DNA from: Chlorokybus atmophyticus
Taxonomy: Eukaryota > Plantae > Mesostigma and Chlorokybus algae
Assembly (NCBI GenBank): GCA_009103225.1
Contig: RHPI01000818.1
Coordinates: 408,906 to 472,905, forward strand
DNA: 64,000 nt
Direction: 5' to 3'
Positions within the stretch are counted from its first letter, which is position 1. Each line of letters starts with the position of its first letter. The notes beneath the pieces are model-generated. The model ran no database searches. It saw only the letters and a program-made list of their open reading frames with translations, and was not told where the DNA came from. Shown here piece after piece: positions 2,598 through 64,000 of this stretch. A program made the position numbers and the translations under genes.

Positions 2598-2639
2598 CTC
2601 CCACGCGAGCAGCTTGACCTCCAATGCTTGCTCCTGTAG

Positions 2640-6546: not shown

Positions 6547-6673
6547 CTTTGTCGAGCCTGCCTTTCTTGCAGTTGACACCCAAGGCTCTGCTACCAACAA
6601 GCTACCGTAGTGTAGAACTACTATGCACACAAGCTGGTCTCACACTCCTCAAGTGTAGTGTGGGCCCATAACC

Positions 6674-17416: not shown

Positions 17417-17779
17417 ACCTGTGTTTATGGGTTGCGCACGTTTTTTGAGTTACGTGCAGAGGCGCGAATGTTGGTGTTGGCATTGATGCTGTTTCTTGCT
17501 GCCAAGGATCGCAGGATCATCTGGACCTCATCGTTTACCTGCAAAGAACAATGGTACCATGAATGATGCAGTACACATCCGAGATTGATGTTGAATATGG
17601 AACATATATGCGTAGCGAAGTAGAAGCAAGGAAACAGACCACGGGTACAGGATATGAACAAAGGGAGCCAATGCAACAACAGAAGTGTAACAAAAGATGG
17701 AGCGACTGCATGGGTTCTGGCTTGATGTGCCCATTGTTGTTGAACTCTGCTACGCAACCATAGCATTCTCACGCATCGC

Positions 17780-22200: not shown

Positions 22201-23330
22201 AATTTTACAGCGTTTTTGATGGCATCATTGATTGTGGCAGTAGGTCGTTGTTTGAGGAACTTTTCAATATCAGCGTCCACAGCAACTTCGCGGCACTTTC
22301 TGACTGTAAGAAGTGATTGACGGATTTGGTACATCAACAGCAAATAAGGCTTGTACAATGTGAAAACTGAGAACGATTGTGTAAGACGGAACTTGACATA
22401 GTCTGACAGTCTGCTGTACACGTTACCATCAAAGAACCCACGATTGTGCGGAAACAACATGGGAAACAGAGCAGACTCAACAGTTAAACCAGGAATATTG
22501 TACACACCACCTGTATCCATGTGTATCAAAAGAGGAACACAAGGCTCACGCAGCGACATATGTCCAACGCGCAACATGGTGTCCACTGTGACTTCAACTG
22601 TGCTGCGCGAAGGAAATGGCAACAAGGTGGTTAAAACGTATGTGTATGCTGATTCACCAGCAATGTTCAAAGGATTACGATCCTGTGCACGAGACACAAT
22701 GCTACGAATAGTAGATGAACCGACAGTGGGGATGCCGTCAGAACCAAATGGTTGTTCTGCCAAGGTCTGATATTTCTGAACCAGAGTGTTGGACGATAAT
22801 AGCTCGCTCAACAACTCCAGCAACAAGATGGCATGTTGGTTCTGATGTGTAAACTCATCCCAAGTGATAAACGGACCGTTAATCATATTCAACTGCTGAA
22901 TTTGGCCCGAAGTGAAACTGTATGAGTTATATAAGTCGCAAAGCGCCATGGACGTGTTAACAAGGGACAACATCTGCACTACCATTGGATGTATCTCCAA
23001 CAACTTGCGAATGTACACTGCGCTGTGTAATACAATGTAACTGGAACGCTCCGACCCGTGACTACATCGATGGCATTGGTAGTAATCACTATCACACTTG
23101 GTATAATTGGACATAAAAACATTAGCCAAATCATATGGTGCAACGGTGGATACTGATCGTCGATACATTGGAAGATAAGTAGCAGCAGCAGTAAAACTGT
23201 ACATGCCCGCACAAAGAACAACATTGCATTCGCGTGACAAACTTACGTTGTGCATCTTGCCAACAGGAAAGCAAATCATTGCAGTCGTCCCACAATTCGC
23301 AATGCTGAGACAAATCGCAATGTTGCTCAT
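19291..23330 (-). pseudogene. Helitron-type RepHel (HUH Rep + PIF1-family helicase), frameshifted
   Basis: Rep motifs LFVTITADE, YETQHRGSLHAH and KYLVKYTTK. Helicase motifs GCPGTGKT, IIDEFSM, GDHKQLPAV, FPLQLAYAMTVHK and YVALSRV. Split over 6 ORFs. Confidence 0.93.
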
Positions 23331-23469
23331 AAGTCATAGCGGATGACGAAACAACACACCAGGAACATATCAACCGCCCTGGCATTTGTCGCCATCCAAA
23401 AGAACCATCTCGGCACAGTCTTGAGGGCGTGCAAAGGTGCAAATCCACATGCACAATATCTCTGATGTG

Positions 23470-31100: not shown

Positions 31101-32290
31101 AGCACCCGCTGCTGCTAACAGATGGTTACATCAGGCCCCTACCTAGCCCTCTGATGTAAGTATAAATTGCTTGCTGCCAATCAGCCTGGCCTGGCCGGAA
31201 TGTGAACACGCATTGGCATATGCACTGATATGATATGCTGCACAGTGCTTGCCCAAGTCGCACCGCTGATTACAGTGCAAGGCCGCCGCACTTGGTGTAA
31301 CGCCTCCGTTTTCTGCCTGCCAGCAACAGTAGCACCAGCAAGTTACCGTTTACATTACCGTTTACATTCTGTAATCAGCGTACAGAATGCGTGACCAGTC
31401 CCATCGTGCTGGGCGGCGGCGGTGAGGAGAAAGCGGAGGACGAGGAGGTGGTGGTTTCAAGGGGTTGTGAGGTTTGTTGTCTTGCTCAGGCTGCGTTGGA
31501 GCGGAACAAGCACTGGTGCAGGGCCTGCAGCTCCACTGTGCCTAGCAAAAACGACGTAGCAGGCAAGCTTGCCTAGAGACATGGCCGCCGACGAGCCTGT
31601 TGCCATGGGTTGGAGCGAGCTCCCCGCGGACAGCTTGGAGACCATTGCCTTGAAAGCTGGGCCACGCGCAGCAGCAGTCATGGCGTGTGTGTGCAAGTAA
31701 GTGCCAGCGGCTTGTGTGTACCGTACGGCTGGTCAGACGGAGTGAAAGGACGTCTAATATGTGATTTGAGCAGCCGGTAATCTCACAACTAGAAACCTGC
31801 ATGCTGTGTGGGATCCGACGTATGGTCGTGTTGCTGCAGCCATGTGTGGAGGCTGTCGTCATGACTTGGCTGGAGTCCATGGTCGCAGTTACATGTGCTA
31901 GGAGTCCCATCCAAGCTGTTGTTATGCTGTATCGACACAGAATCAACTGCAATGGTTGCTTGATAGTGGTGTAATAGTAGTGCAGCCTCCTTGATGGCTA
32001 GTGTTGGCTCAGCATTCAACGGATGCATGTTCTGAACAGCCGGCTGGGAGGCGGATGGTTGGTTGGCTGACGTGTGATTGCTGAAGTTGCAGCTGATTGC
32101 TACAACAGCGCGTGCTGGACTGAACTAGTGACTGCCAGATGTTGTATACCGCCACTGAGGTCCTGCCATTGCTTGCAGGCATTGGGCTGCAGAATACAAG
32201 CAGCAAGAGGACGTCTGGCGTCGTTCTTGCGAGAGAGACTTTCCGCTTCATGCCGAGCTGAAGAAGCTGAACCCGGCAAGCTGGCGTGCG

Positions 32291-33439
32291 GTGTATTGCA
32301 GTGCCAGGGACTGGCCAAATGACCATAGCTTGCAGCGCGAACATCGTTTGCTGGAAAACTGCTGTTTGCCAGAGGTGTTTCCAATAATGGATCTGAGGCA
32401 GTACAGATCGGTGGGAGTATGTGTCTGTGGCGAGCGCGTGGTTTCATTGCTGCAAGGCCAGTTTGAGCTGGGTGCGCCAGTACGACACCTCTTCCATGTC
32501 TGGCAACTGGCTGACAACACTTGCACCTTCTTCATCCCTGACTCGGGCACTGTCATTCCGTCCTGTTGGCCTCATCCTCGTCCACAGCTGTATTGGGATG
32601 GCCAGCTGTTGCAGCTCAGTACCCTTGAGCCACTCCGGAACGGTTCAGTATCTCGATGGGACATTGTAAAGGGAAAATGCATGTCCTTGCAGTTATTTCC
32701 AAGGCTGTCCAACCTCCAAGTGTATGGGGACATGCTATGTGCTAGGTGCTCAACGGGGCTTGGTCTGTACAAGTTCCTTGATGGGACATGGCAGGTTAGT
32801 AGCAGATGGCCTGCGGACCGAGTGACACGGTGGTTGCATGGACGTTGCTGCCTGGCTCAAAATGGAGCTGCATTGGAGCTGGCGTGGGTATCTGGTCGTA
32901 GGCTTCGCGTGCATGATGTGACGCACAACCTGGACTTTGATGATGACGAACGTGTTGAAGACTACACCAATAGCACGGGCGACTTAGGCCTGCTGCTGAC
33001 CACGCATTTCGTTCAAAAGTTGGTGCTGTTGCCTACCGCTGTTGTCGTTGTGTTGATATGTCGGAAACTGACTCGAATGCGAAGCAGCGCACGAGTTCTT
33101 GTGCACTCGAGGCCCTCGTTGGGATGCATCGCCGACATCTCCGTGCCAGAAATAGGCAGCTGGACTATTGATGTAGCGAGTGGAAGTGCTGAGCTCGCAA
33201 TCTTGTATGAGGTTCGGGTGGCAGCTGAACAAGGCCTGCTGCTATGTAATACGATTACCGGCAAGGTGAGATGGCTTTGGTTCGACTCACAAGCGAAAGT
33301 CAAGGTGTCACCTGTAGCCCAGCGTCTTTGCTTTAGTGCTGGTCATGAATACAACCTGTACCAAGTTGCATTGCAAGTCGGTTCTGTTATTATGCAAGAC
33401 ACAGTGAGTTTGAATACTTTTGTAGTTTGCACGGTGTAA
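32291..33439 (+). CDS. Long intronless ORF of unknown function (beta-rich), with a possible degenerate F-box upstream at about 32130
   Basis: 382-codon open frame. Upstream LPDVVYRH*...ACRHW is only weakly F-box-like. Confidence 0.4.
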   Translation: MYCSARDWPNDHSLQREHRLLENCCLPEVFPIMDLRQYRSVGVCVCGERVVSLLQGQFELGAPVRHLFHVWQLADNTCTFFIPDSGTVIPSCWPHPRPQLYWDGQLLQLSTLEPLRNGSVSRWDIVKGKCMSLQLFPRLSNLQVYGDMLCARCSTGLGLYKFLDGTWQVSSRWPADRVTRWLHGRCCLAQNGAALELAWVSGRRLRVHDVTHNLDFDDDERVEDYTNSTGDLGLLLTTHFVQKLVLLPTAVVVVLICRKLTRMRSSARVLVHSRPSLGCIADISVPEIGSWTIDVASGSAELAILYEVRVAAEQGLLLCNTITGKVRWLWFDSQAKVKVSPVAQRLCFSAGHEYNLYQVALQVGSVIMQDTVSLNTFVVCTV

Positions 33440-39300: not shown

Positions 39301-39822
39301 CCCATACTATAAGTCTCAGATGGATGCTACTGAAGAAGTGGCCCAATAGAAACCATCGGAACGCCGTTGGCGCGCACAAGCGGTCGCACATTTACTATTG
39401 ATCAGACCACGGCTCACTGCACGGTTCCCTCTCTACAAGGACCAAGCTGCAGTCCATGAGCAATACCAGGTGGCCACTGGAGTAGTGGGGTTCCACGTGT
39501 GTTGCCGACAACAAGGCATCATCGTGTTGGGACTGTTTGGAGGTATAGGTAGTGGCCTCGCCGCTGTTCTCAACACCGACGCGACGGTCACCAAGTACCC
39601 CTACTGTGACCCTTATCCACACGCATATATTGCCCCAAGCCACCACTTGCGCCGCATACACGAGTGCTACCCGCAATAGTTGCCACTATTAGCACTGCAA
39701 GGCACTCTGACGGCACTGGCACAGGACATCCGCTTAATCATTGCGGATCACCTCCTGGTTGTGAGCAACATCGACTTGCTGATAGCAGGATGGGAGTTTT
39801 AAGGCTACTCCAGAGCAGGCAG

Positions 39823-40065
39823 TGTTAAAAGTATTCCTACATATGATCAGCATCGACCCTCCACACTGGAGTAAAAGGTCATAAGGACGAGCACTAGGTC
39901 CAGACTTAGCAAGACGGCACCGTCGGACCAGATTCCGGACTCTGTACTAGAGCCTTATCAACGACTTCGTGTCTCCGCGTATACTTACTCATATTGAGCG
40001 TGTGAGAGCTAATTAGAAGGCTCTAGTTGTAAGGAAGAATGCACAGCTTAGAGCGCATGAAAAGG
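39823..40065 (+). repeat. 5' part of a family-1 copia LTR, interrupted by a family-2 element
   Basis: Similar to the reverse complement of the right-hand part of 2175-2597 and to 49575 onward. Confidence 0.85.
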
Positions 40066-47580: not shown

Positions 47581-48329
47581 CGAGCAGACAACTTGCAACT
47601 AGCAAGGCTGGGCGGCAAGGGCGGCGTTGTGGGCGAGGTCGGCGGCGGCGTTGGCTTCATTGCTGAAGTGCAAGTGTTGTGTTTTCGCTTGGTTGTTGTA
47701 GTTACTTCATTGGGTCCGAGAACCCTGGCGAGGTGTTTTTTTGCAGCTTCGGGTGGGCTTGCTGGAGGGTTTTGGCACTGCTTCCAACAAGGTGCAGCAC
47801 ATGCCGTGCTTGTCTTTGTTTGCATGCATGCCCGCTTGAGCATTTCGCTAACTATCAAAAGTGCATGTTGTCTATGTTGTTAGCCACCACTTGATGCTAA
47901 TCAGAGGGGCGGCCTCGTGCGTAAGACCACCTCTTGCTCAGTTTACAAGCTGTTTTATTTGAGCATGCACTCTTGTTAGCCACCACTTGATGCTAACCAG
48001 AGGGGCGGCCTCGTGCGTAAGACCACCTCTTGCTCAGCTTCCAAGCTGTTTTATTTGAGCATGCAGTTATCATTGTGGCTGAGGCTAAAGTGTGCATGCT
48101 CAGGCTTGTCTGCATGCTTAAATAGGCAGCCGTGTGTGTGTGTGCATGCTCAAGTGCTCATGTTGCTCGACTATGTGTGCTTGTTTTTGGCTGTGAGGCT
48201 TTCCTCAGGTCGTTTATCATGTCCAAACGAAAGCTCGTTCCCCTTGGCCAGTTTAAGCCTGCAGGTAATAAGTAATGTATTCGATGTTCAGCATGATTAT
48301 TGTTAACATGTGGTAACACTGGTCATGCA

Positions 48330-49574
48330 CACAGACAAGAAGCACAAGGGTCCAACGCACAAGAAGGAACCTACTAAGAAGGAAGCTGTCCTGCGGAAAC
48401 CCTGCAAGAAATCAAGTAATGTAGCGCTGTTCCAGCTGACTGTACTAACGCATGCTCATTGCGGTTGTTTGCCACCATTGTTGCAATAACACTGTCTATT
48501 GCAGACCTGATTGACACCACAAAGGCTCAGTTGCTGGAGGGGTCCAATAATTGGCGGAAACTAAGGGAGGAGGAGAAGGCTGGGAAGGCGAAAATGTCCA
48601 CAGAATACAGTTGGGATGTCGTGGTTTAAGTAATGCAGAAGAACATGAATGAAGATCCTCGCTTGCTTGAGCTCGACAAGAACTTGCAGATTTGCCTACG
48701 GAAGTTCGTGGAGGACCAGCTCAGGCTTTGTGATCCGGAGGCAGCTGCTAGGGGTATGGACCTCGGGCATTTTGGCCTTGAAGATGTTGTTACCGATAAT
48801 GACATCCATGAAGAAACGAAGACAAAGTGGGGAAAGAATTCTCTGACTGGAGGAAAGCGAAGGCAAAGAGCAAGAACCTCTTGTCATGGGGTGAGCTGGT
48901 GGTCTTTATCAAGAAAGCGCTGTGCAAACCAGACTTGGCTTCCCTCAATCGAGAATGGAGGCTCAAGCTACGGCAGTATGTGGAGGAAGAGCTAAGGCTA
49001 TGTGATCCAGAGGCAGCTGCTATGGGCATCGACATCGGGGAATACGGTCTTGACCACGAAGTAGAGGCGCCTAAGCAGCAAGTGGAGGCCCAAGCCAAGC
49101 AGCAAGCCAACGCGGAGGCCAAGCAGCAAGTGGAGGCCCAAGCCAAGCAGCAAGCCGACGCGGAGGCCAAGCAGCAAGCGGAGGATGAAGCCAAGCAGCA
49201 AGCGGATGCTGAGTCCAAGCAGCAAGCCGAGGCGGAGGCCCAGCAGAAAGCTGAGGCGGAGGCCAAGCACAAAGCTGAGGCCCCACCCAAGTCCCAGACT
49301 GCACAAAAGCAGAAAGGGCCTCGACCTGAAGCCGGTATCTCTGCTTCTGCTGTTAAACCAGAAGACGGTCTACCTCCAGCAAAAACGGAGGGCGAGTTAG
49401 AGCTGGTTGGGCTGTTGCACCGGCTTCGGCTTTTCAATGCCTATGCAGATGGGAATTGCTTTAATGCCTGCCTTGCCCAGTCGCGCCCTCACGTGAACTG
49501 CGTGCTTGACATGCGCGAACGCAGCGGACAACGGGTCTTTCTGGCGAAGCATTGTGCTGGACAATGGCAAACAG
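48330..49574 (+). pseudogene. OTU-protease gene of element A (paralog of 61264-63725), cut by an LTR insertion
   Basis: LRLFNAYADGNCFNACLAQSRP, AEAKQQ repeats, two copies of an N-terminal helical repeat. After a frameshift it reads FWRSIVLDNGK up to the LTR. Confidence 0.85.
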
Positions 49575-50405
49575 TGTTGAGAGTATTCCTACATACGATC
49601 AGCATCGACCCTCCACACATGAGTAACAGGTCGTAAGGACGAGCACTAGGTCCGGACTTAGCAAGATGGCATCGTCGGACCAGACTCCGGACTCCAGACT
49701 GGAGCCTTACTAATTGCTTCGTATCTCCGCGTATACTTACTCATATTAGGCGTGTAAGAGCTTGTTGAAAAGCTCTAGTTGTAAGGAAGACAACACAGCT
49801 TAGAGCGCGTCAAAAGGCTGAGTATAGCTTACGCAGTGACTGCAAACGTAGACGTGTATGTAACTGGCTGGTATAAGAACCAGCGGACAACTTGTAATAG
49901 ATGAATGTGATGTGACTTGTGTATGCTGTGGTGGCGGTAGCTCTGTCCGTGTGTATCCATGCTTGCCTCAGCTACATATGCATGCTAGTCCTGTTGAAGA
50001 TATTCCTACATCCGGTCAGCCTGCCCTGCATACAAGAGAGAAGAGAAGGGACCTCGATGGGAGGACCTCGAAGACTCCGGACATGAAGGTCCTGGCGCGG
50101 ACTACAGAGAAGGGTCCTAGGAGAATCGTCATATCTCCTAGGATACTCACTCTTATAGGACGTGGCATAGCTTGTTACAAAGCTTATCAAGTTAGCTACG
50201 TGGCACATCTTACAGCGTAGGATATGGTTCAGTATATCGGACGCTGTTGCATGTAGACCAGCAGTGTGTACAAACTGTGTACTGACTGGCGGGTATATAA
50301 CCCCGCGGTCTGTTGGTAATAAATCGGGAAGTGTGTTGCCTTCTCCTGTGTGTCATTGCTTGCCCTCTTTACTTGCATGCTTGCTTCTCAACGAGTCCTT
50401 CAACA
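49575..50405 (+). repeat. Family-1 copia 5' LTR (49575-49991 plus 50399-50405), followed by a PBS and a short leader to about 50452
   Basis: Reverse complement of the 2175-2597 LTR. AGTTATGGGCCCA at 50406. Confidence 0.92.
49992..50393 (+). repeat. Family-2 solo LTR nested inside the family-1 LTR
   Basis: TGTTGA...TCAACG flanked by TSD AGTCC (49987-49991 and 50394-50398). Confidence 0.9.
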
Positions 50406-50454: not shown

Positions 50455-50830
50455 TTTTACGCGCGGACCAGTCGTACGCGGCCCGTAGACCACGTCTGAT
50501 ACGTTGTAGCGTACCAGTGCCGCGACTGGTCCGGCATGATCGGACCACTGGTGGTCCGGCCCCGGAGCCCGCCGATATGGTCCGAATGACCGGACCAGGG
50601 CTGGTGGCGTGTCCCGCGGCTTGTAGACCGGTACAGCACTGGTCAGCACGCGGCCTGAGCAGTAGGACCAAGGCTGGTCGCATGCCCTGCGGCCTATGAG
50701 CCAGGGCAGCACTGGTACAGAATGCATGTACTGTACGGACCAATTATGTCCTCACAAGCGGGACCAAGCTGCACTGGTACGGTTGCAAGCGGCCCTCTAT
50801 AGACCATGCATGGTTCCGAAACCGAAACAG
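50455..50830. repeat. GGACC/GGTCC-rich array resembling the subterminal region of the CACAC element
   Basis: Dense GGACC/GGTCC and GACCATGCATGG. No terminus visible. Confidence 0.55.
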
Positions 50831-51033
50831 CACTCAACAACTCAACAGCTCTTTTAGATTATTGATATATTATGATAACCAACGGTGAAGAATGACGTCG
50901 AAAGCATACGACACATCTCACCTGGTCCGTTGCTCCCAAGGTCACGTGCGCCAATGCTAAACGAGTAGCAGGCACTGGGCATGCATGGTCCCCTGTCCAT
51001 TTGCTAGGGTTTTGGGCTTGCGCTGTTGTCTCA

Positions 51034-51065
<32 letters not shown>

Positions 51066-52067
51066 GGCGAAAACCTTTGGAACAGCTGGTTTCGTGGGTA
51101 CTACGCATGCACCCAGCATGGCGGACCGAAAGCAGCTGATATTGCTGAAAGACTCCACCAGTCTATCGGACTCAAGCTACCTGCAGTCAACCTTGCAGCT
51201 TTGCGCAAGCGGAAGCAGCGTTCCAAGTTGGTTGTCAACGCAACGCAAGGTTTCCTACGTCAGAAGGACTTGGAGTTGAATCAAAGAGAGCAAGCTCTTG
51301 CCCGCAGAGAAGCTGAGGTGTCCCAAATTTTGGCTGATAGCGGCCTCGCTGGTGACAACGCGTCCCCCATAGAGGTGGATGGGCAGGCAGACCCCTCACT
51401 CAGGTAACATCCTTGCCCCCACTAGCTAGCTTTCAAGCCTCATTGCGACACAGCCAGCACAGATTTCTTGACAGCAATTGTTAAGCGCCTAATATGACTC
51501 CCTGCAGGCCAGCTTCAGCAACTCAGCCTGCTGCTTACCCCCCTGCAACCGCTTGCCAGCCATCCACTTCGCATTCCCCTCTGTCACCGGCTGCTGAAGC
51601 TGGAGGTGGCTCATTCGCCGACGAGTCATCTGATCATGTGGAGAGCCAGCACCGGTAATTTTAGGACCCCCCGAGTCCTGATTATTCACGCCATCTCGTC
51701 TGAATATTGATGACTTGATCCGTTTCACGCCTTTTGTCCGTGAATATCCAATGGTTATTGTACTTTCTGTCCCATCCCTGCCAAAAAAAACAGCGTTCTT
51801 CACCCGCAAGACGCATTCATATTCAACGTACATACCACTGAACCTCGTTTCAACCCGTACACTTTGCGTTTCAAACTGAGTATTTCGTGCATATTTAATG
51901 TCAGTCAAGTTGTACTTGATGAACGATATGGTACAATGAATTGTCAGTGCCCAAACAGCAGAATAATCACCCAGCGTGTGTGGTGTTGGCTACGACTTGC
52001 CGCGAAAACCCTGAGTCCTAAATACCATTGCATAGTCACCGTCATATTCAGGGAACATCTAGCATGA

Positions 52068-52225
52068 AATACACCAAGTCCCAAGTGCCATCGAACATTC
52101 AACACCACTTGACAAAACTGCCGATGTGAAATTACACCAAGTGCCAAGTGCCATTGAAAGTTCAACACCACTTGGCAAAACTGCCGCTGTGAAATTACAC
52201 TAAGTCCCAAGTGCCATTGGAAAGG
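52068..52225. repeat. Subterminal tandem repeat, ~63 bp x 2.3
   Basis: CCAAGTGCCAT.GAA..TTCAACACCACTTG.CAAAACTGCCG.TGTGAAATTACAC. Confidence 0.85.
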
Positions 52226-52353
52226 CAAGCATGCTAATGGCATGCATTCTAAATTCTATTAAGCACAAAGTTAGCTTGGGCTACTATTACACAGCTGGCC
52301 AATGAACCTGTGCTTTTGACTACAATTTAGCTATGTACCAACCGCCTGCTACT

Positions 52354-53620
52354 TCACATCCGCCGTGACGTTTGCTGTGCTGGCATGCTGTCCATGAGTG
52401 TTCGCAGTCGTCTCCTTAAGCTGTCTGCCTCTTTTGGACGAAACCAATCCTTTTGCATCTGCGTTGCACACACCCACACCATCTGGTTGCTCAACACATG
52501 TCAACCTACACGACTTTGCACTAAGGCAGCTGCCATATGGAGTACATTCCAATGCATGAGCTGTACCTGCTGAAATATCGGGGCGTTTTGCTCAATTGGA
52601 CCAGCTTGTATCCCATCTATAAACTTGTCAAGGTAAACCATGACAAACAGCCCGCACGCAACTCCATCCCTCTGCTGAGGGACCTGCACGAACACGCTAT
52701 GTCAATGCGGGCGAACCAAACGTATGTGCATCTACATAGGGATTGTGCCGGGAGAGGGCGTGACCTCATCACCAGGCCAAAACAACATGTCCTCCCTGTG
52801 GATCAAGTAGCGGGACGTTTGCGGGAGAGAAGCGCTGTTGCGACTCACTTCCATGCTTCCTGCCCCACATATAGTTTAGATAAGCGCGCATTGGTCCGTC
52901 GACGTTGCGATGTAGACCAAGGGAGTCGAGATGGACGATCAAGGGCGGCGTGTTGCTTCCAAGTTCCCCTCCAGGATTGCACACCAGCAGCAGACTCCAG
53001 TGAGTCCTGTGGCATGCAGACTTCAAAGTGAGTCCATGCGAGCAAGTACAGCAGCACTGCAGTGCGAGAACTTGGCTTCACTCTCACCGGCTGTCTGGGT
53101 TGACAATTGCTGCCAGCAAGTTCTTGGAAAACGGATCGTTCTCCCACCTATCTATCCTGTGATTGCCACTGTGCCAGTTATGTTGTTCATGGCAGTGCAC
53201 AATCTTGGTGTAGAAGTGCGGGTTGAACAGCCTCACGTGAATGCCTTCAGCTCTGCCCACGACCTCCTCTTCCTTATATCTGCGCGTGCGTGACACATAC
53301 ATGACACAGCTGCACAACACCAACAACGCAAGGCTCATACTTGCAAAAGAAGTGGAGCACGGTGCCGTTGAGCTCCTGTCTGCCGTCCAGGAACTTTCTG
53401 TCCGCTTCAAACACTGGCACCGCATCACGTGCATTTGCACTAGGGTAAATAAACAGGGGCACAGGTGTTGACGCCTCAACTTCAGCACCCGGCCCGTCCA
53501 GCACCATGATGTCATCATCGCTGTCCACGAGGTCCACAACTGCTGCAGCCGTCGTGGTTCCCTGACTTGGGTGCTGGCGACGTTCCCCGTTGGCATCCTC
53601 ATCATCAAGTTCCATCGGGA
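52354..53620 (-). CDS. Ulp1/SENP (peptidase C48) domain exons, C-terminal part of the transposase fusion
   Basis: LFNPHFYTKI, HWSLLLVC (His), HLDSL (Asp), PQQRDGVACGLF (Cys), WFRPKEA. SIM-like VVDLVDSDDD. One donor site near 52795 looks non-canonical. Confidence 0.88.
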
Positions 53621-53709
53621 CTGGCTCTGCAGCGTAAAAAGGTAGGATTATGCAATAAGCGCCGCAACGCAAACCAAGAAGCGCCAGCACGTTGCTGCTT
53701 ACCACTCAT

Positions 53710-54252
53710 ATCTTCATCCCCGCACTCTTGAACAAAGCTTTTACCCACGCTCTCAGTCGGTGGTTGTGAAACCCAACCGCTGCTGCCCGGCAGAGAACGA
53801 CGCGCGAGGCTATCCCTTGGAAGCTGTGCCGGAGCCCCACCTTCTTCGTACGCAGCGCATTGCGAGCATGTGACCGAAAAGATGTTACCAACAGCATGAC
53901 GTTGACAGAGGCTGTTTGGGCATGTCGCGCATACTTGTCGAGCTGGTTCATTGCATATGTGCACATGGCACCTGCGTTCCAGTGATCATTTTAGAACTTG
54001 TCGACTTCAGACACCATGCATTCACTGGATACTGAAGCTTACTTGTGCCTTGGGCATTCCCAATGGTCATCTTCCACAGGTGGTACAGTGACGCAGCGTG
54101 CGTGGTAGCTCTTCCAGCAGCCTTCTGCATCACAGCCGAATATGCTACCGCCATCCTTGCAGACAAAGCAATAGTCTTCGTGTTCACGATTCTCCAATGC
54201 ATCCAGCTCTAGCCCCGGTCTCATCCTGCAAACCAAGGTCAGGTGCCCAGAT
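53710..54252 (-). CDS. PHD finger plus adjacent Cys/His cluster (NSD/ASHR3-like tandem)
   Basis: DYCFVCKDGGSIFGCDAEGCWKSYHARC...WECPRHKC..HIC...CATCPNSLCQRH...CSQC. Confidence 0.9.
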
Positions 54253-54303
54253 CTGCAGTCACACAACAGTAGGTATATGCAGCATCACAATAGCAAAGAG
54301 TAC

Positions 54304-57300
54304 CTCATGTACTCAAAATGCCAGTCACGGCGTGTGGTTCACGACACCTCGCTCGAAGCACTGTTTGTTTCGCTGTGGTCACCCTGCACCATGTGCATGT
54401 ACACAAGATGGTTGTATGTGATGCCAAGACCCGGGAACTATGAGGACACCCAGATTCTCACAAACAAATCTGCTCTCACCGGAGTGTCGCGGTGCACACC
54501 TCGGCGCATGAGGCTTCGCCTGTCTTTGACAAGCGCTACTGTTATTCTGGTGTCATACGGGTCAATACCCTCAAACCACTGGCCCTTGACCTGCCAGCAA
54601 GGACATGTATCACCCAATCTCACTCTACCATCAACTCGCAAAAACCGCTGCAACACACCTACTTACTAGGTTGCAATCAAGGTAGGTTTGTTCTGCAAAG
54701 CGGGGCTTGTCTTTCCTCATGATTGCAAAGCCTCCCATGTGCTGCACCTGGTTGCTCATGTACCACCTCGCTCTGAGGAGCTGGTGCTCCCAACCGGCTA
54801 CCACGACAACATCAAAAGACTGCACCCTGCCATACCAGTGGACCTTCTTGGTTGGGTCATTTGAGTCACGCCCAACGGTAAACACTCCGCAGTCCATAGT
54901 GCGGAGCTTCTTCTCAGTGTCCTCCGCTCTGAACTGGCCAATGTCCTTGTAGCGCGCTCTGTAGTACCTCATGATGTACTTTGGAAAAATGGGACCACTC
55001 AACAGCTCCATCTCGTGTTGAGTAAGCTCCCTATCAGGTCCACGCCAATGATGCAGCTCAGTCATGTGCTCCATGTCACTGGTCACGAGATTCCCTTGTG
55101 CTTGGGCCCTTTCGCGTGTCTTCCGCCGTTTTTGAACAGCCCGACTGAATTCTCTGTTTACCAACCCATTGTGGACTCATAATATGCAGGGGACATTGCG
55201 TACCAAACAACGATTGCTAAAGCAACTTACTCTTTTAGCTGCCTGTACTCATCGTCATTTTCGGCCAACCACCACTCCAGCTCCTGCCTGATCTTGCTAT
55301 CTTTCTCACACTCAACACGGTGTCTGCGCCCGCAGAGGACATAGTCATCATCATCTCGCTCCTTGCCCGATCGCAGACTGATGCCGACGAAAAGCCTCTT
55401 CAAGGTGTCCATGTAAGTGTTCAACATGAGCTGGATGGAGTATCTACAGACATAACTTGCATTTAACACAAGTCAAAGAACGAGAGTACGAAACAGGTTG
55501 CATGCAACTTTTAGTTGGCCCAGACTTGCCTTTTGCAGATGCTTGCTTCCACATGCTGCCTGGCAAAAATCATGCGCTTTACCCACTGCATAAATCGTTC
55601 GTCGGCCCACTCCCAGTGATCACGCACCGGACCAAGCCACATGCATTGCCCTGGTAGATGGCCAAGGAGGTGCAGCATCATTGTGAGCGAAGTCCGCGGG
55701 AAGAACAGCTCCACCTCAGACTGTGCCTCATGCACCAGCACCTGCGATGAATAATGCAAGTCATGCAACATGTAGAAGCTAAGCACACACATGGAAGGTA
55801 TGGTTAAAGCCCTAACCTGCAGTTCTTCAAGGTGTGACTGACTTCACTTCCAATGCAGTCAGCCGCTGATAGATGTCGCAGAGTTTGAGGATTGTTTTTT
55901 TCTGATCTTCTCCAATGTCATGAGCAGAGCGCAGCACGTTCTGGAAAATCACGGACCACAAGTTGTGCTTGTCGTGCGATTTCATCGAGCCTGTGTGCTC
56001 ACTACATCAGATTGTTAAGTAGACACAATGTGCAATGCAAGGACACTGAGTTGACTTGCACGCAGTTGAGAACCATGGTGGTTGTCTCACCTAAATGCTT
56101 GGTGAAAGATTGCAGCTTAGAGCCGAAAGTGCTTGGAACCCTCACGCCTGAGAGTAATTGCTCAACCAGCCCTGCATCCGTGATTGCCCATGGAGCCTGA
56201 GGTTTGACCTTAACTGCAACTTCCTTTCCGTCTTTCGTCATCTCTGTCTGCAACGCATCATCACAAAGTCACACGAGTTGGCAGGCAGTCATCACAAGTG
56301 TCGCATAAGCCTGCAATACCTGTAGCCAGAGTTCTGGCATACGACCTTGCTGCTTCAGATCTTCTCGAGTCTCATTGCTGTCGCGCATTCCAGCAAGCAG
56401 ATTGGCCAAATTGGTTGCGAGATTGGCAAAAATGTCCATAGGGCCAATCACATGACCTTTTACAAATTTCTGTAAAGGCATCCAATAGGGAAGGTCGTGA
56501 AAACGGCCAAGGATAGGCCAAGGATTCCGGAGGACTTTGAAGGATGTTTCTTGGAGTGAAGTGGTCGCTTGCTGTTGCGGGATGTCATGGCGTACCTGAT
56601 CACATGGCATCCATTGGTGAAGCTTGATTGACATAGCTACGTTCAGCTATGTCAATTGATTGGTTGCTCACCGGTACACACTTTCTGCAGTCCGCATGGG
56701 AGGTGGAGGTCTGTGTTCTGGTTGGGGCCAACGCTCATCAACTCGGTAGGGATGGTCATCTGGTAAGTACCGGCGGTAGCCTTGATAAATCACCTTTTTG
56801 AGGAGTTCCACATGTTCTCCACTGCACTCGCATTTGGAACAGCCAAAGATGGCTCCATGAGCCATCTGCATGGCTGCTTTTGCCAGAGCTGCGCAACCAT
56901 CATTACATGTTTCAGAGAAGGCAAACATGGTTGCCATACCAGTCATATAGTACATTCATAGACACTGATGGCCAACAATTGCTGCTTGCGTACCTGGGTA
57001 ATCATGGATTACAATCTCCAAGATAGATCAGCACCGGAAAACTTCGTCGCGGTGGCTGTCATATATGTCGATGCCTACAACAAACACCAGCAGCTGAGAT
57101 GCCCTACACATTCCAGTCCAGAGCAGTTTACGAGCATGTCTAATGTATCGAGAGCTGGCTTGTTCAAACTACATTGAAACCATACCTTCCCAAAGGGTTC
57201 CCAACTGGTCAATGATTGGCTTGAGATAGGCCTGTAGATTCTCTGGCTGTTTGGGACCAGGTATCACCGCAGCTAGAAAGGTAGTGTCGGTCTTGTGCAT

Positions 57301-59107
57301 TTTGGCAATGGGCAGGTTCAGCACAGAGATTGTGACAAGCCAAAATTCATAATTCCCTGCAAGTCCACACAAACACCTCAATCAATGCCAACTGTGAATT
57401 TACACACTGCAATGACAGCACAGGTAAAAGGCACAATCACTACCTTTTTGCGGATCTTTGAAAGGGCTCATCCCGTCAATAAACATTGCCAGCCGCACAT
57501 TACGCGGTTCTTTGATAAACCGGATGTAGCGTTCTTCTGTATGCTTGAACATTGGCGAGTCTGACAGCAGCAACCACATAAATAATAGTAAACATGTAAG
57601 AATTCAGGCTGCATTGGGCATCAACTTGTCAATCCACACTGCCATATACATACCGTGTATGGATCGTATAACCCCATCCTCACTGCGATTGGTGTGCGCT
57701 GTCATCTCCATAGCGACACTAGGCTTTAGGTAAAGAGACCTCAGAGCAGCAGGCACGTCAAAGTAACGTGCAATCTTCCAAGGAACTTGTCGACCTCCAA
57801 TGTTGCGGTGGCGAGGAGCCTTGCAGACTGCAGGCCATAGGAAGTTTGCATGCGGACAGGTGATCCCATGACAACTCAATCACAGAAGAAATGCTACAAT
57901 AGCTGACCTTTGCAGAATTTCCTGTTGGCATGTCGGCCATAATACACCATGTGGTCACAACAACAGGCGTCATAAGCATGGAAGCCCATGTTGAGGCTTG
58001 CAAGGCATTTCAGTAGCTCTTGCATGCTGCCTGGCATCTGATTCTCCTTGGGCAAAACAACATCACGCACCAACCTGGCACACAAAGTCAAGTTCAATTG
58101 GAAATTGAACATTAATGTCTTTGCAGAATGTGTTTTGTATATATAATTTTGCAAACCTCTTATCCACCAACCTTAGCAGTTTGTTCATGAAGTTGAAGGG
58201 TATTCGATGTAGCTGAGCGAGAACCAATAGCAGCATGGAAATGCCCAAAGGGGTTGTACGAGAGCCGGCAACAATAGGGTTGCTTGCATTGTCCAACAGC
58301 GCAGCATTCACCTTGTCAAGCAGCATTGCCTCGTCATCACCATGAGTGTTATACTGCTGCGACTCCACATCGGTATCGGAGTCTTGGTCTACGCCATCAC
58401 CATCACCATCAACTTGCTCCGCATATACTTGATTAGCGGTTGAGGGGGAGTGCGCTGGCATATCATGCTCGTTCGGAACTGTGTATTCTGGAGTTCTGGC
58501 ACCTTGATGTCCTCGCGATACAGGATGCTCACTTCCAGAGAATGCTGGGTGCAATTCGCTCTGTTCCCCATGATCACACGGATGACATCCTGCCAACGCG
58601 AATAAATGCACTGGCACATGGACAATGACGTAAGCAATCAACTTGCAACTAAATTAGGTCGTACCTGCTGGGCGCATGTGATGTGCAACATTGACATGAG
58701 ATGCCACACTCGTTTGCGATGGCGTGGCTGGGTGCAGTTGTTCAGCAGCGTAGTTCCATGCATGAAGTGTTTCGATGTGATGGACAGCATCATCTGAAGC
58801 AGGCAAGCTTGGTAATCAGACAGCCTGTGGATGAAGTACACCAACTCAGGAAGATTACTCTTGTACCTGACAGCATGTGCGAGGATGCAGCAGCAATAAC
58901 AACGTCAGCCTCTTCAAGTTCATCGGGTTCGAGAAGATTACGGTATTGCGGTTCAACAGCTTTAGGAGTGCCCATCCACATCCTTGTGCCATGGTACTCA
59001 TGGTTTTTGGCCCTAGTGATGTGCTTGTGTGTGAACACTTTGCTCCCTTGGCAATCTTCGCAGAAACACCTGCGATTGTAGCTCATGCTACAAAGATGTT
59101 TAGTCAA
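54304..59107 (-). pseudogene. En/Spm (CACTA) TnpD/Tnp2-type transposase, multi-exon, with nonsense codons
   Basis: N-terminal CFCEDC...HGE, RNVRLAMFIDGMSPF (D), LNLP...IPGPKQP, IHDYP (D), CSKC, LFFP...HLLGHL...LGPV...WADERFM (E), and DUF4216-like WYGRV...RARWY. In-frame TGA at 57030-57028 and 54341-54339. Confidence 0.93.
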
Positions 59108-59149
59108 CTATTATCCTGACATACAACCAAACTATCTAGAGCCCTTACC

Positions 59150-59345
59150 TGATACCGCCGCCGCCGCCGCTGATACCGCCTTCGCCGCCGCTCTAGCATC
59201 GCTGTTGTAGAATTAGGGTTTAAAACCGTCAATCCTAAATTGAAAGCTAGATCCAGTATAAGCCGCGGCTTCAATCCGGATGTGCTCCGTAATTTGCGTA
59301 CGTGCTCCAGTTTTTCTTCCGTGAAGTGCATCAGCTACTAGGGTT
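59150..59345. promoter_or_regulatory. Putative bidirectional promoter between the transposase (-) and methyltransferase (+) genes
   Basis: TTAGGGTTT at about 59215 and CTAGGGTTT at about 59340. (GCG)n leader followed by a GTAAG donor on the minus strand. Confidence 0.5.
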
Positions 59346-61043
59346 TGAATGGTAGGTTGCGTGGCGGCAGTATGCGCGGCGTCAAGGTGTGCAGTTTCTG
59401 CAGAGCATACTTGGTTAGAAACGGCAACTTGAAACGGCTGCAACAGCATGAAGAGAAGTGCAAGCTGTACAGTGAGCAGTATGGCTTCTATGAAGCCTGC
59501 TGGCACCATAAGGCCCGGGGAGATAACGTGAGGCAGTGCAGGCTTCTAGCAAAATGCATGAAGCCAGACTTCTTTGTCGAGGAATGCACTTGCCTGCAAT
59601 GCTCGCTCTCCAAATTTGAGTGGGACGGCGAGCCCATGGATCACCTGCCTTGGACCCGGCCTGGAGCATATCAGGATGGGCAGGAGTGTGATGTGGTGCG
59701 ACGTCAGCTCGCGCGCAACGGTCGCGGCAAGTCCACAGTCCAAGATGATCACAACAACAAAGTGAGTTGAACTGTCCTGTCCTGGCGCACAAACAGCGCT
59801 CTCATACGTAAGCAACTCACTCTTCAATGTTGAAGGGGAATGTAGCAGTACTTGATGCAGTTGACGATACCGCGATAATAACTGCGTGGCGAAAGGAGAT
59901 TGTTGACGAGGGGCAGTTTTTGGTAGCAAGCCGCGTCGTGGTATACTGGCCTGGAATGAGCACCTGGTATGCAGGCCGCATCATCACTTTCAATGCCAAC
60001 ACAGGTACATGTGTCCAAATAATGCAGAGTATGTGATGTACGTGCGCGTGTTCACGCAAGCACTGGCTCAGTAAAACATGTGGCTCAGGAAAACATACCA
60101 TCAAGTACGACGATTACGATGAGGATCCGCGGATGCACCACATCTTGTTGAAAAACTTGAACATCGCAGCTGTGCGTGAGGGTTACAACATGCAAGATGT
60201 CGTTGCAGTGATGGTTCGAGTTGGTGGTCAAAGCTGTCTGAGACTGCAAGACTTGCCTGGTCGCGAGCTCGATCGTTGGCCCAGGCCACCACCCCTTCTC
60301 GTAACTCGCACACCATGCGACTCAAGCGGTAGACGTTACAGGCCACGCGCATTTGATCTCTTTTGTGGTGCCGGTGGCGTTGCTATGGGTTTGTACAGGG
60401 CTGGGTTTGATGTTGAGGGTATAGACATTAAGCCACAGCCGGCATACCCATTCAAGTTCTGCCATATGAATGCAATGGACGCTGATCTGTCAGCATACGA
60501 TGCAGTGTGGGCAAGTCCTCCATGCCAAGCTCTTAGTGGAGCCATTCCCACGACACAACGGTCCGCATACGGATATCGATGGGATCACGTCAACCTGATT
60601 GCCCCATAAGAGCCAAGTTGCAGTCAAGCGGCAAGGCATGGGTGATAGAGAATGTCGCAGGCGCGTCAGGACACATGACAACTCACCTGAAGCTGTGTGG
60701 CAGCATGTTCAAGTTGGATGTGTATCGCCATCGCATCTTCGAGACAAACCCTCCAGTGCGCTCAGACTTAGAATGCAACCACACTGGTTCTGCACTTGGA
60801 GAGCTGGCCACCCACCCGGAGCAGCGCCGGCAGTTGCTACCTGGGGAGAGGCAAATTTACCCGGTATACGGCCAAGCATCTTGCCGTGGTACGATTGCAG
60901 GGTGGCAGTCTGCCATGCAGGTGGAGTGGATGGATGCGGAATCGGAAATCAAGAATGCAATTCCACCTACTTACTCTGAACATGTAGGCAGGCTGTTGCT
61001 GGAAGCGATAGGTTTCAATGTCGATTACCCTCCTTTTTACTGA
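59345..61043 (+). pseudogene. Cys/His-rich region + Tudor-like domain + compact bacterial/phage-type C5 cytosine DNA methyltransferase, with one frameshift
   Basis: Motifs [48 protein letters not shown]. Tudor-like SRVVVYWPGMSTWYAGRI...GKHTIKYDD. Proposed exons 59345-59761, 59836-60004 and 60089-61043. 1-nt deletion in the C-run at 60602-60605. Confidence 0.9.
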
Positions 61044-61263: not shown

Positions 61264-63725
61264 CTACTGCTCGAGTGTTGGCTGCTGGCCTATTACTGCT
61301 CGCTCACGCTCATGTTGACGTTTCTTGGCCAGTTTCTTGCTTTGCCGCCGATCATCAATGTGTTCGCGTTTTTGCAACTTTAACATCTCCATGGAGTTTG
61401 CTTTGCGTGCGGAAAAATTCTCTCGATTGAGATGGTGCTTTTGCAAAGTCTCATTCAGCTCGTTTTCGTTTTGCTTGCAAGTGCGCACAAGCTCGTTAAA
61501 CTGGTCATCCCGCCAATCCTGGTTCAAAGGACCTTTCGCAACGCAATTGCGCACTCCTTTCCTAAGCCCCTTGAGAAAAAGCTGTAGTTTGAGGGCATCA
61601 TCCACCTGCAGCGCTGTCGCGTTGGCAACCATACACAGATGTTCGAACTGCGCGTGAAACTCCTCCACTTTGCGACCTGCCTGCCGCAGATGGCGCAGCT
61701 TCTTAAAAGCGCCGGCAGGGGTGTTGTCCATTTGCGCAGGAGCTCGGCTGCGAATACGACGGCGTTTGCGCTTCTTGCTTGTGGTGGCACGACGAGGAAC
61801 ACCAGAGGAAAGACTACTGGTTGATGTGCCAGATTCATTAGAAGAGCTCTCATTGCCCTGCATTCAGCAGAAGAGCTCTCATTGCCCTGCATTGCATCAA
61901 GCTCGGTGCCACATTGCGCAACTCCACACTTGCTCTTGCACGCAGACAGCATGACAGTGCTCACCTGTTTATCAGCTGGGCTCATGGGTTCCGCCTGATT
62001 CTGGACTTCCACCTCAACCTCTTGGTTGACCTGCTCCTGCCTGGCCTTGGCTTCAGCCAAAGCCTGCTCCTGCCTGGCCCTGGCTTCAGTCTCAGCCTGC
62101 TCCTGCCTGGCCCTGGCTTCAGTCTCAGCCTGCTCCTGCCTGGCCTTGGCTTCAGCATCAGCCTTGGTCTTCGCCTCGCCCGCCTGCCTGGCCGTGGCCT
62201 CAGCCTGCTCCTGCCTGGCCTTGGCCTGTGCTTGCTGCTTCAAGCTGGCCTCGACCTTCTTCATGCACTCTGGACCCATCCTCAGCTTTGGCTTTTGGAC
62301 CTTCGCGCTTGCCTGGGTCTCAACCTTGCCTTCTCCCTTGGCCTGGGCCTCAGCCTCTTGCACACACACAGCTTGCGACTGCACAGGGGGTCTACTTGAA
62401 GATGTAGGCGCCTGGAGTGGCGCCGATTTGGCACTGGGTGCTGATTGCGGAGGACCATCAGGGTACAGGCAGCGCAGGACTTCTGGTGGCATGTCACAGA
62501 GCTGCCATGAGAGCCTACCACTCGCATCGCCAAGAGACATGTAATGCGCGCAGGCCTTGCTCGCGTCTGTATTGCCAATAATCACATGGCCAGCCACTTT
62601 CTGAACATCCTCGCCGATCAGCACCACAAGCTTGATATACTGCAGCTTTCCTTTGTCATCAGGTTTATAATACCTCCCGTCATCCCCTTTGCTGAGTACC
62701 CCCTTGTCCTCCGCTTCTAGGATGTACTTGCAGTCACCAACCTCCTTGAGCTGCACGGTGCCAATGCGAATGCCCAGTGTGTGCGCCAGCAGCGCCAATT
62801 GCAGTTGATCCGCATAAACACCCTCATGACCGATCACTTTCTTCAGAGCAACAACAGCTGCATCACCTTCATCTTTTCCATTGAGAACCGTTGTTACCCG
62901 GAATTTCTTGGCGGCCTTCTTGTAGTCCTCGCCCATGTCACCAGAGGCCCCGTAGTTACGATATGTTCGTAACCAACGAACGTTGACCTGGTCAGCACAC
63001 ATCTTGCGCAACTTGGCAGCTTGATCTCTCGTATGCAGCTCTTTGCCGTTGTCCAGCACAATGCTTCGCCAGAAAGCCTCGTTGTTGATTGCGCCCACGC
63101 GTTCCAGGCACGCAGCGTTGACGGGAGGGCGCGACTGGGCAATGCAAGAGTAGAAGCAGTTGCCATCAGCATAGGCGTCAAAGAGCCGCAGCTTTGTCTC
63201 ATGCAGCAGCAGCCCAATCAGCTCCGCCTCATCGCCCGGTTGTGGAGGAGGTAGACCAGACTCCCAACGACCACCAGTAGATGCACGACCCGTTGATGTG
63301 CCCACTTCAGCTTCAGGTTCTCCGACAAAGTTCCCAAGGTCAATACTCGCAGCTGCTGCCTGCTTGTCACACAGCTTGCTGAGCTGCCGCCGCAAGAACT
63401 GATCCAACTTGACTCTCCATTCATGCGAGAGGGCGAGCAAATCAGCTTTCTCCAACCGCTGCTTGTATTTGACCACCAGCTCTTCCCATGTAGGGCAGTC
63501 TTCCTTTTCCTCTCTCCATACTTTTGCATAACCTACGCAAAGGGCCTTGAAATCATTGAAAACCTCTTCGTCGGTCTTGTTTGCCCGGATCTGCGGCTTC
63601 TTCACCTCTTTTCCTGGTTGCAATGACCGGTATGAGCACGAGTTGGTGTGAGAAAGTTTACACATTCCAAGAGTACCTGCACGCTGCTGCTGACCACTTG
63701 GCAAGACCTTCTGCTTTGGTGCCAT
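61264..63725 (-). CDS. OTU cysteine protease with AEAKARQEQ repeats, spliced to a retrotransposon Gag-like domain
   Basis: YADGNCFYSCI...YADQLQLALLAHTLG...AHYMS. Phase-0 intron 61964-61858 joins LRHLRQAGRKVEEFHAQFEHL...LFLKGLRKGVR. Confidence 0.82.
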
Positions 63726-63814
63726 TATGAACAACCTGTGTCGACACACACAGAGAAACTTACAAGCAGACACGAAGTGATCAAGTGAGCCAAGTTTGGA
63801 ACTGAGCAAGCAGG

Positions 63815-64000
63815 GGCCTTACGCACGAGGCTGCCCCATGAGGTCAGCATGAACAGAGGCGTGAATTGACAACATGCAAGACAAGGTTTGCTTGAGGTCA
63901 GCATGAGCATGCAGGGGCCTTACGCACGAGGCTGCCCCATGAGGTCAGCATGAGCATGCAGGGGCCTTACGCACGAGGCTGCCCCATGAGGTCAGCATGA
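63815..64000. repeat. ~47-bp tandem repeat, homologous in inverted orientation to the ~96-bp duplication at 47880-48065
   Basis: GCAGGGGCCTTACGCACGAGGCTGCCCCATGAGGTCAGCATGAGCAT units share GGGGC.GCCTCGTGCGTAAG with 47905 and 48001. Confidence 0.88.

Follow-up and report, generated by a model that had tools for sequence, protein, structure and literature searches.

The window analysed here, a stretch of 64,000 nucleotides from Chlorokybus atmophyticus (contig RHPI01000818.1), is eukaryotic in character, has a GC content of about 50% and is dense in mobile elements. A plant-type Tudor domain, telo-box-like motifs at gene starts and one named close relative, from Klebsormidium nitens, suggest a streptophyte alga as the host. 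Near its right end lie three neighbouring genes, one coding for a protein with PHD/C5HCH and Ulp1-like (SUMO) protease domains, one for an En/Spm (CACTA) transposase and, divergently oriented from the latter, one that joins a Tudor-type histone reader to a compact cytosine-C5 methyltransferase (Table 1). The last is a real reader-plus-methyltransferase gene of three exons (59372-61043, plus strand), its splicing being predicted from the sequence. A previous reading made from the letters alone (the sequence-only reading) had described it as a phage-type DNA methyltransferase (DNMT) fused to a Tudor-like module inside a CACTA DNA transposon.

Table 1. Features of the methyltransferase gene and its neighbours in the window, with exons and introns as predicted.
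Feature	Position	Strand	Remark
PHD/C5HCH and Ulp1-like (SUMO) protease gene, ends approximate	52371..54600	-	third gene of the shared cassette
En/Spm (CACTA) transposase gene, intron-rich	54634..59087	-	Transposase_21 E 4e-10, DUF4218 E 1e-9
Intergenic stretch between the divergent gene starts	59088..59371	.	telo-box-like TAGGGTTT at 59214 and 59339
Exon 1: ATG and Cys/His-rich N-terminus, probably zinc-binding	59372..59761	+	exon-like contig depth in both runs
Intron 1, GT..AG, 74 nt, in-frame stops	59762..59835	+	diverged copy type unalignable here
Exon 2: first half of Tudor domain	59836..60004	+	alignment to 7DE9 residues 8-37
Tudor cage Trp	59947-59949	+	exon 2, 7DE9 register
Tudor cage Tyr	59968-59970	+	exon 2, 7DE9 register
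Intron 2, GT..AG, 84 nt, in-frame TGA 60034-60036	60005..60088	+	Tudor register ungapped once removed
Exon 3: second Tudor half, linker, compact C5-cytosine methyltransferase	60089..61043	+	stop 61041-61043
Tudor Tyr / Asp / Asp	60106-60108 / 60112-60114 / 60118-60120	+	exon 3, 7DE9 register
Catalytic Cys	60523-60525	+	exon 3
C4 run: frameshift private to the window copy	60602..60605	+	one more base in X1, X2 and X3 contigs
Catalytic-domain Glu	60648-60650	+	exon 3
Convergent gene, OTU-like protease motif, 33-nt repeat, Retrotrans_gag-like end	61267..63818	-	membership of the element uncertain

The gene had been thought to start at 59345, but this codon is a TTG and the first in-frame ATG is the one at 59372. 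Both introns that had been proposed hold, each running from GT to AG. Their removal joins a single open frame from the ATG to the run of four cytosines, where the frame breaks, and beyond the run another frame holds the ENV, RHR.FE and NAIPP motifs up to the stop. Other copies of the gene were compared as assembled contigs of two public runs, X1 and X2, which come from two studies and are the ones among six listed runs that cover the stretch; X3 covers little of it and X5 gave no match. Contig depth over intron 1 is 13, compared with 27-71 in the adjoining bins, with a loose end at 59778, and inside intron 2 a diverged copy lacks 17 bases, which is not a multiple of three. The Cys/His-rich N-terminus is indeed present in exon 1, and yet it could not be assigned to a family, no match being found in Pfam, PHROGs, NCBIfam or the Atlas (best value 0.88, recognition 1630).

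The catalytic domain shows motifs I (FxGxG-like), IV (PC), VI (ENV), VIII (RxR) and X in the standard order of C5-methyltransferases. Profile searches bear out the core motifs seen by eye: the N-half matches Pfam DNA_methylase (E 2.8e-5, 24.1 bits, cut-off 22), PHROG 363 matches both halves (E 3e-17 and 8e-4) and its family motifs (LCG.MF.L...RHR.FE, W, IPP.Y) are found in the window enzyme, which keeps 43 of the 44 positions that are conserved in an alignment of 150 family sequences. Between motifs VIII and X the enzyme is as compact as had been claimed, the 71 residues of this segment lying within the 53-93 of the compact family (median 62, n=111). The attribution of that family to phages and bacteria is likewise borne out by PHROG 363, and a search with the C-half returned 1,660 representatives at E<=0.001 and 314 phage records, mainly of actinophages, with 37-40% identity in the top 25 rows. 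Moreover, no exon piece has a Pfam match to BAH, chromo, PWWP/ADD or UBA domains and the DRM rearrangement is absent, in agreement with the view that the architecture is not that of DNMT1, CMT, DRM or DNMT3.

Structural comparison was made with a homologue, P0180, which is 50% identical to the window enzyme over 209 core columns and whose predicted fold reaches a predicted local distance difference test (pLDDT) value of 94, this being a model of the homologue and not of the window protein. Among 48,161 chains, its top 19 matches all belong to the C5-cytosine methyltransferase family (Z 10.3-16.2), the best with Z 16.2 and a root-mean-square deviation of 3.8 over 212 aligned residues, and the first match after them has Z 8.2. 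The top 19 share 11-21% identity with the model, which means that no solved structure comes from a close relative. The DNMT families of the host type are far removed from it (14-18% identity to DNMT1, MET1, ZMET2, DNMT3 and DIM2). DNMT2-type RNA enzymes share the fold in this comparison; cytosine C5 methylation of DNA is the predicted activity of the window enzyme. The best sequence matches of the window enzyme are longer proteins that carry a methyl-CpG-binding domain (MBD) between motifs VIII and X, the target-recognition position, and that we group here as the MBD-insert clade.

The Tudor-like module can be specified further. Exon 2 gave a single match in the PDB, 7DE9 (E 0.035), which is the Tudor domain of Arabidopsis RDM15 complexed with monomethylated lysine 4 of histone H3 (H3K4me1) (PMC8184781), and Pfam LBR_tudor matches the Tudor stretch with E 0.076. 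When the intron is read through, exon 3 continues the alignment of exon 2 at chain residues 39-52, and removal of the 28 intron codons joins both parts gap-free against 7DE9. In this register the residues W616, Y623 and Y641, which form the cage of RDM15, and D643 and D645, the acids that select the monomethyl state (PMC8184781), are all identical in the window Tudor (5/5), and E647 is replaced by D. The two cage codons of exon 2 are unchanged between copies (40 of 235 differences examined). The ungapped register together with the five functional residues supports both the identity of the Tudor domain and the splice; as a profile hit, in contrast, the domain remains weak. We predict a reader of the RDM15/PDS5C type with an intact H3K4me1 site. 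RDM15 is described as a separate adaptor of the pathway for RNA-directed DNA methylation (PMC8184781), whereas the window reader stands on the enzyme's own chain.

Each run holds two copy types, about 99% and about 88% identical to the window. Over the 520 bases of 60086-60605, the near-identical type has 7 differences and the diverged type has 61 differences and 18 gaps; the latter lacks 18 bases in the linker, in frame. At the break, X1 has a depth of 81.2, to which forms with an inserted C contribute 33.3 and two contigs that show the extra C in loose ends contribute 48. In X2, where the depth is 98.2, an inserted C accounts for 36, an inserted A for 30.7 and a pair of contigs whose loose ends have ten letters, as in X1, for 31.5. 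The extra C is also present in X3, at a depth of 3.7. The frame is thus open across 60602-60605 in every form listed for the runs, as expected if other copies are intact. At positions 60354, 60465 and 60636 the runs carry the family-typical residue and the window does not. These off-consensus positions and a TGA within an exon of the window transposase (57028-57030, just ahead of the second catalytic Asp) make decay of this copy likelier than a broken family; the window copy is probably defunct, in a family that has intact representatives. Of the two causes that had been offered for the missing C, decay is accordingly the likelier, and the base may be missing through an assembly error; the run contigs do not separate a private mutation from such an error, since both runs differ from the window.

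Both copy types keep the frame, the splice pattern, the cage and the catalytic residues, and their introns diverge. Forty of the 235 differences were examined, and the 35 of them within the gene were classed (8 intronic, 27 coding). Silent changes make up 12 of the 27 coding ones, compared with 22-28% expected (P 0.009-0.046), and the ratio of non-silent to silent changes, pN/pS, is 0.36-0.48. The excess of silent changes is weak by itself and agrees with the exon-intron contrast in the diverged copy. The spliceosomal introns, the plant-type Tudor domain and the contig joins to the transposase rule out that the gene comes from a contaminating contig of a phage or bacterium.

The motifs D..D..E, C(2)C and H(3)H, a hallmark of En/Spm, were read in the transposase; the TnpD-type transposases of this group are defined by DDE, C(2)C and H(3-4)H (PMC12730594). 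It stands head-to-head with the methyltransferase, the start codons being 285 bases apart. The stretch between them is probably a bidirectional promoter, and the motif TAGGGTTT occurs in it twice, which we take to be telo-box-like. In the diverged copy, 181 unlike bases stand in place of 176 bases of this stretch, and one diverged-type contig (X2 record 10) spans the starts of both genes. The third gene matches PHD_NSD (E 3e-7), C5HCH (E 7e-5) and Peptidase_C48 (E 3e-3) in Pfam. The diverged type extends from 52371 to about 61200 in both runs; its joints lie at the introns, it has unlike sequence outside this range, and in its transposase the exons are kept and the introns diverged. This shared block implies that the Ulp1/PHD, transposase and methyltransferase genes travel together, and we infer that the cassette lies inside the ends of a transposon. 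On the left side, the near-identical type additionally reaches over the flank (50519-51651). In both runs the contigs of the diverged type are 2-3 times as deep as near-identical ones, which fits several copies, depth as such not being a copy number.

DNA transposons are normally targets of cytosine methylation. A functional, transposon-borne family of Tudor-methyltransferases is, in our judgement, very probable, with the gene as likely cargo of an En/Spm transposon. In the mechanism that we propose, the Tudor domain would bring the enzyme to H3K4me1 nucleosomes, where the compact catalytic domain, with little surface for reading sequence, would methylate short targets close by, likely CG, and the element copies would gain a gene-body-like methylation instead of the silencing one. 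The preference for CG is suggested by the MBD of the relatives. H3K4me1 and gene-body CG methylation co-occur in plants. In Klebsormidium nitens, CG methylation is described on active gene bodies and CHG/CHH methylation on silent elements (PMC5890265), and DNMTs carried by retrotransposons are reported to methylate CG de novo (PMC5890265). For this camouflage as a whole, the activity of the enzyme and the benefit to the element included, we see the chances as evenly balanced.

Several points weigh against this interpretation. The splicing is predicted from comparison alone, and the E-values of the Tudor domain by themselves (0.03-0.08) fall short of significance. The pN/pS ratio rests on 27 coding changes among 40 of the 235 differences with two copy types mixed, and P rises to 0.077 at a transition bias of 4 if two changes in one codon are merged. 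The argument for CG is indirect, the window enzyme itself having no MBD; there is no solved structure for any member of its family, and we know of no measured specificity for any of them. The observed/expected ratio of CpG shows no footprint of self-methylation in the element compared with the window: it is 0.53-0.77 in the element and 0.55-1.03 in the rest of the window, so that depletion is not element-specific. Finally, motif search, self-BLAST and repeat finders gave no pair of CAC(TA/TG) terminal inverted repeats and no 3-bp target-site duplication in the 64-kb window, and the cassette could therefore be a segmental duplicate beside an element. Of the claim that the gene lies inside a CACTA transposon, the common travel with the En/Spm transposase stands and the enclosure by termini is likely rather than certain; the right end of the element may lie past window position 64000.

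The same fusion might serve as a device of self-restraint or competition, methylating H3K4me1-marked copies of the element or rival elements and thereby damping them. Fusions of a reader to a DNMT among host genes, for instance CMT and the chromodomain-N4CMT of rotifers, reportedly act in silencing. RDM15, which couples H3K4me1 to silencing methylation, uses the same Tudor site to promote RNA-directed DNA methylation at some of the targets (PMC8184781). However, silencing of itself would yield the element little gain, and the cassette also holds the Ulp1-like protease and PHD gene. Such genes are usually seen as aids to anti-silencing or targeting. We consider self-restraint rather unlikely.

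It is improbable, though somewhat in keeping with the state of the window copy (its frameshift, the stop in its transposase and its three off-consensus positions), that the fusion is a passenger, i.e., a short-lived and non-functional chimera captured in the style of Pack-CACTA elements. Genes for TET enzymes in fungi are described as moving among DNA transposons in a 'frequent but passive' manner (PMC12730594). On the other hand, two copy types about 12% apart have kept frame, splice patterns, cage and catalytic residues while their introns have diverged beyond alignment, and silent changes are in excess between copies. A shade less probable still is a domesticated orphan DNMT of the host that happens to lie beside an En/Spm element, with the two copy types as segmental duplicates or alleles. 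The missing termini, the coverage of 50519-51651 by the near-identical type, the spliceosomal introns, the host-type Tudor domain and the fact that contig depth gives no copy number would all suit such a gene, but what the diverged type has in common with the window is just the Ulp1/PHD-transposase-methyltransferase block, which it leaves at 52371 and near 61200; it is 2-3 times deeper in both runs, and the start codons of transposase and methyltransferase in the window are a mere 285 bases apart. The transposon-borne Tudor-methyltransferase family accounts best for these observations.

As to the origin of the enzyme, membership of the PHROG 363 family agrees with the phage-type enzyme that had been proposed, but the nearest kin are the proteins of the MBD-insert clade (P0025, P0026, P0032, P0062, P0177-P0185 and P0290, the last being GAQ92615.1 of K. 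nitens). Apart from GAQ92615.1, its members are open reading frames (ORFs) from Logan, JGI or ENA contigs. Four of them match Pfam MBD with E 3e-8 to 0.02, and the profile of their insert matches solved MBD1/2/3 and plant MBD5/6 structures. This profile matched 15 of 288 proteins, the window domain not being among them, and the segment between motifs VIII and X has 98-163 residues in the clade versus 71 in the window enzyme. No MBD fold appeared among the matches listed for the P0180 model, which were filled by the catalytic domain. Most MBD-insert proteins fall below the threshold of Pfam DNA_methylase, with no match for GAQ92615.1 at E 0.1, and surveys that require E<1e-4 would therefore miss them.

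The window domain scores 204-258 bits with its nine best single-domain matches, which are all from the MBD-insert clade, compared with at most 193 bits with compact single-domain proteins and at most 171 bits with fetched loci. High scores are also reached by two phage-type proteins with a tandem duplication, for which two domains are summed. A C-terminal tail of the form G-aromatic-x-V-D-Y-x-P was found in 18 of 300 proteins, all of them from the MBD-insert clade or the window, and a helix pattern after motif IV in 19 of 300, window included. Neither an MBD nor these signatures occurred in any of 432 ORFs of the family, which came from 418 loci of phages, prokaryotes and metagenomes, and no MBD-insert member was among the loci listed from viral, prokaryote and metagenome scans (51 of 64 parts of the last), each scan being represented by 80 loci at most. 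A search for longer homologues, which was a weak one, gave two phage fusions and no second Tudor-fused member. In a FastTree analysis of 130 rows, which excluded nine proteins of tandem or fused type as well as two thirds of the short proteins, the window and the MBD-insert clade form a group of 19 members with a support of 0.907.

With its nearest relatives in the MBD-insert clade and not among the phage enzymes, a direct capture from phages is unlikely. We infer a descent of the enzyme from the MBD-insert lineage in which a methyl-DNA reader was exchanged for a histone reader of the host. Against this descent stand the choice of the tail and helix signatures after the alignment had been viewed, and the results of IQ-TREE on 58 rows. 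The phylogeny with phage and bacterial relatives that the sequence-only reading had proposed thus gave a partial answer: the window falls within a wider group of the MBD-insert clade and clade B, plus three compact proteins, at 83% ultrafast bootstrap (UFBoot), and its placement inside this group reaches 46% or less, so that the tree does not choose between loss of an MBD and its never having been present. Both trees agree in direction with kinship to the MBD-insert clade, without making it firm. Direct acquisition of the catalytic domain, in its compact form, from phages or bacteria and independently of this clade is improbable in view of the full-domain scores and of the tail and helix signatures, which it shares with the clade and which are absent from the 432 ORFs, although its 71-residue insert is of compact size, the inner tree support is weak and core identity does not separate the groups (52-53% to some compact proteins, 47-54% to the MBD-insert clade).

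A wider view may be entertained, in which a phage-derived family of compact C5-methyltransferases was rebuilt as modular reader-writers in eukaryote-associated elements. One clade, with an MBD replacing the target-recognition domain, would read and write methylated CpG on one chain, and an En/Spm family would have put an H3K4me1-reading Tudor domain in the stead of the MBD and so pass as gene body. The element would then be the first active DNA transposon to write histone-guided 5-methylcytosine. We offer this modular view tentatively and consider it possible rather than probable.

What is new here is the combination of a DNA-transposon carrier, a writer of a phage family and a reader of the H3K4me1 type; element-borne DNMTs as such have precedents. 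The MBD-insert sister clade is a second finding and apparently undescribed. The N4CMT of bdelloid rotifers is said to be likewise a foreign-type methyltransferase fused to a eukaryotic reader of methyl-lysine. It reportedly differs in writing N4-methylcytosine, in its chromodomain and in being a host gene that acts on transposons, whereas the window enzyme is a C5-methyltransferase with a Tudor domain and sits on a transposon itself. PHROG 363 enzymes have the family motifs and the short variable region in common with the window enzyme, but they are stand-alone proteins of prokaryotes or phages, with 200-240 residues and without reader domains or introns.

Closest among the published elements are SymbioLINE-Dnmt, SymbioDIRS-Dnmt3 and KnitGypsy-Dnmt3, which are also algal mobile elements with a C5-methyltransferase; their enzymes are described as under purifying selection and were proposed to set the methylation of their own element (PMC5890265). 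In contrast to these retrotransposons, the window has a cut-and-paste carrier and a separate, intron-bearing gene, whose enzyme belongs to PHROG 363 and not to Dnmt3 and has its own histone reader. Mariner-1_OLpv from the Organic Lake phycodnavirus is a DNA transposon with a C5-cytosine methyltransferase, too, but it resides in a virus and its methylase is paired with an EcoRII-like nuclease in a restriction-modification-like manner, with no reader domain described in the text available (PMC3627910). In fungi, TET/JBP enzymes occur as DNA-modifying cargo in EnSpm, Plavaka, KDZ and other DNA transposons, for which an escape from silencing has been proposed (PMC12730594); they are erasers, and the window element carries a writer fused to a reader. 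The cargo enzymes known so far from En/Spm elements erase methylation, and a writer with its own histone reader would reverse the roles. Methylases of transposons have also been the subject of an opinion piece (PMC6338049), and reader-transposon fusions have been treated as a general class (bioRxiv 2021.11.30.470311).

ChloroDNMT and the virus-derived orphan DNMTs are likewise enzymes confined to certain lineages, which either belong to green algae or stem from viruses (PMC12344493). ChloroDNMT gained a PWWP reader independently, and orphan DNMTs are generally presented without companion domains (PMC12344493), whereas the window enzyme has a Tudor domain. Six orphan DNMTs are given for K. nitens in a supplementary row of that study, the main text of which contains none of the words 'MBD', 'Tudor', 'CACTA' or 'EnSpm' (PMC12344493). 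Among the papers listed from the full-text literature that could be searched, a scope without subscription papers and Repbase, we found no C5-methyltransferase encoded by an En/Spm element, no Tudor-DNMT fusion and no DNMT with an MBD insert. If the proposed mechanism is true, an enzyme of 500 residues that joins H3K4me1 to CG methylation would be a simple probe of that connection and a compact, testable case of a mobile element tapping the chromatin code of its host. Small reader-guided methyltransferases may also be relevant to epigenome editing.

There are hints of giant viruses as carriers of the methyltransferase family. In the comparison with viral folds, a methylase of Pithovirus matches best (E 3e-19, 30% identity; next match 4e-10), and a Pithovirus-like orphan DNMT is reported from Acanthamoeba (PMC12344493). 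Giant-virus DNMTs are also present in Amoebidium (PMC11244446). A second clade, with a longer insert and no match to the MBD profile, comprises P0029, P0035, P0037, P0052, P0059, P0081, P0118 and P0186-P0209 (100% UFBoot), and P0029 sits on a 245-kb contig, possibly of a giant virus. The gene model of P0290 looks fused or misassembled, since its MBD half is present twice and continues into a protein of 145 residues, for which metagenome contigs have an ORF of its own ('HIT family hydrolase'). Two tandem methyltransferase domains were seen in the family members P0027, P0028, P0030 and P0051, and a fusion to a long phage-like C-terminal region in P0001 and P0002.

To the right of the cassette, the convergent gene at 61267-63818 has a contig depth of 7-34, mainly from the near-identical copy type. 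Its protease motif, as well as that at 48200-49570, is presumably OTU-like, and for the former no Pfam match to such a motif was found. A Retrotrans_gag-like domain (61267-61863, minus strand, E 1e-5) lies at the 3' end of the gene, outside any evident retroelement. The two genes are paralogues, on the plus strand at 48200-49570 and on the minus strand at 61267-63818, and related tandem repeats precede each of them (47877-48065 and 63803-64000). Inverted matches between 47906-49574 and 63039-63985 were considered as ends of the element and rejected, as they consist of this paralogous gene and its upstream repeats (73-87% identity). A 63-nt tandem repeat at 52004-52228, just left of the end of the diverged type, could be a subterminal repeat.

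Elsewhere in the window, a Copia-like retrotransposon with long terminal repeats (LTRs) of 96-99% identity occupies 2175-7104. Related LTRs lie at 39815-40065 and 49568-49992, and the latter, which is 95% alike to 6680-7104, interrupts the left paralogue. Helitron-like Rep and helicase frames (19291-23333, minus strand) and a GIY-YIG-like ORF (17051-17449, minus strand) were recognized by eye from their motifs. Two long single frames on the plus strand code for a RING-finger protein (16019-16747, E 1e-4) and an F-box/Elongin_A-like protein (32162-33436, E 4e-4).

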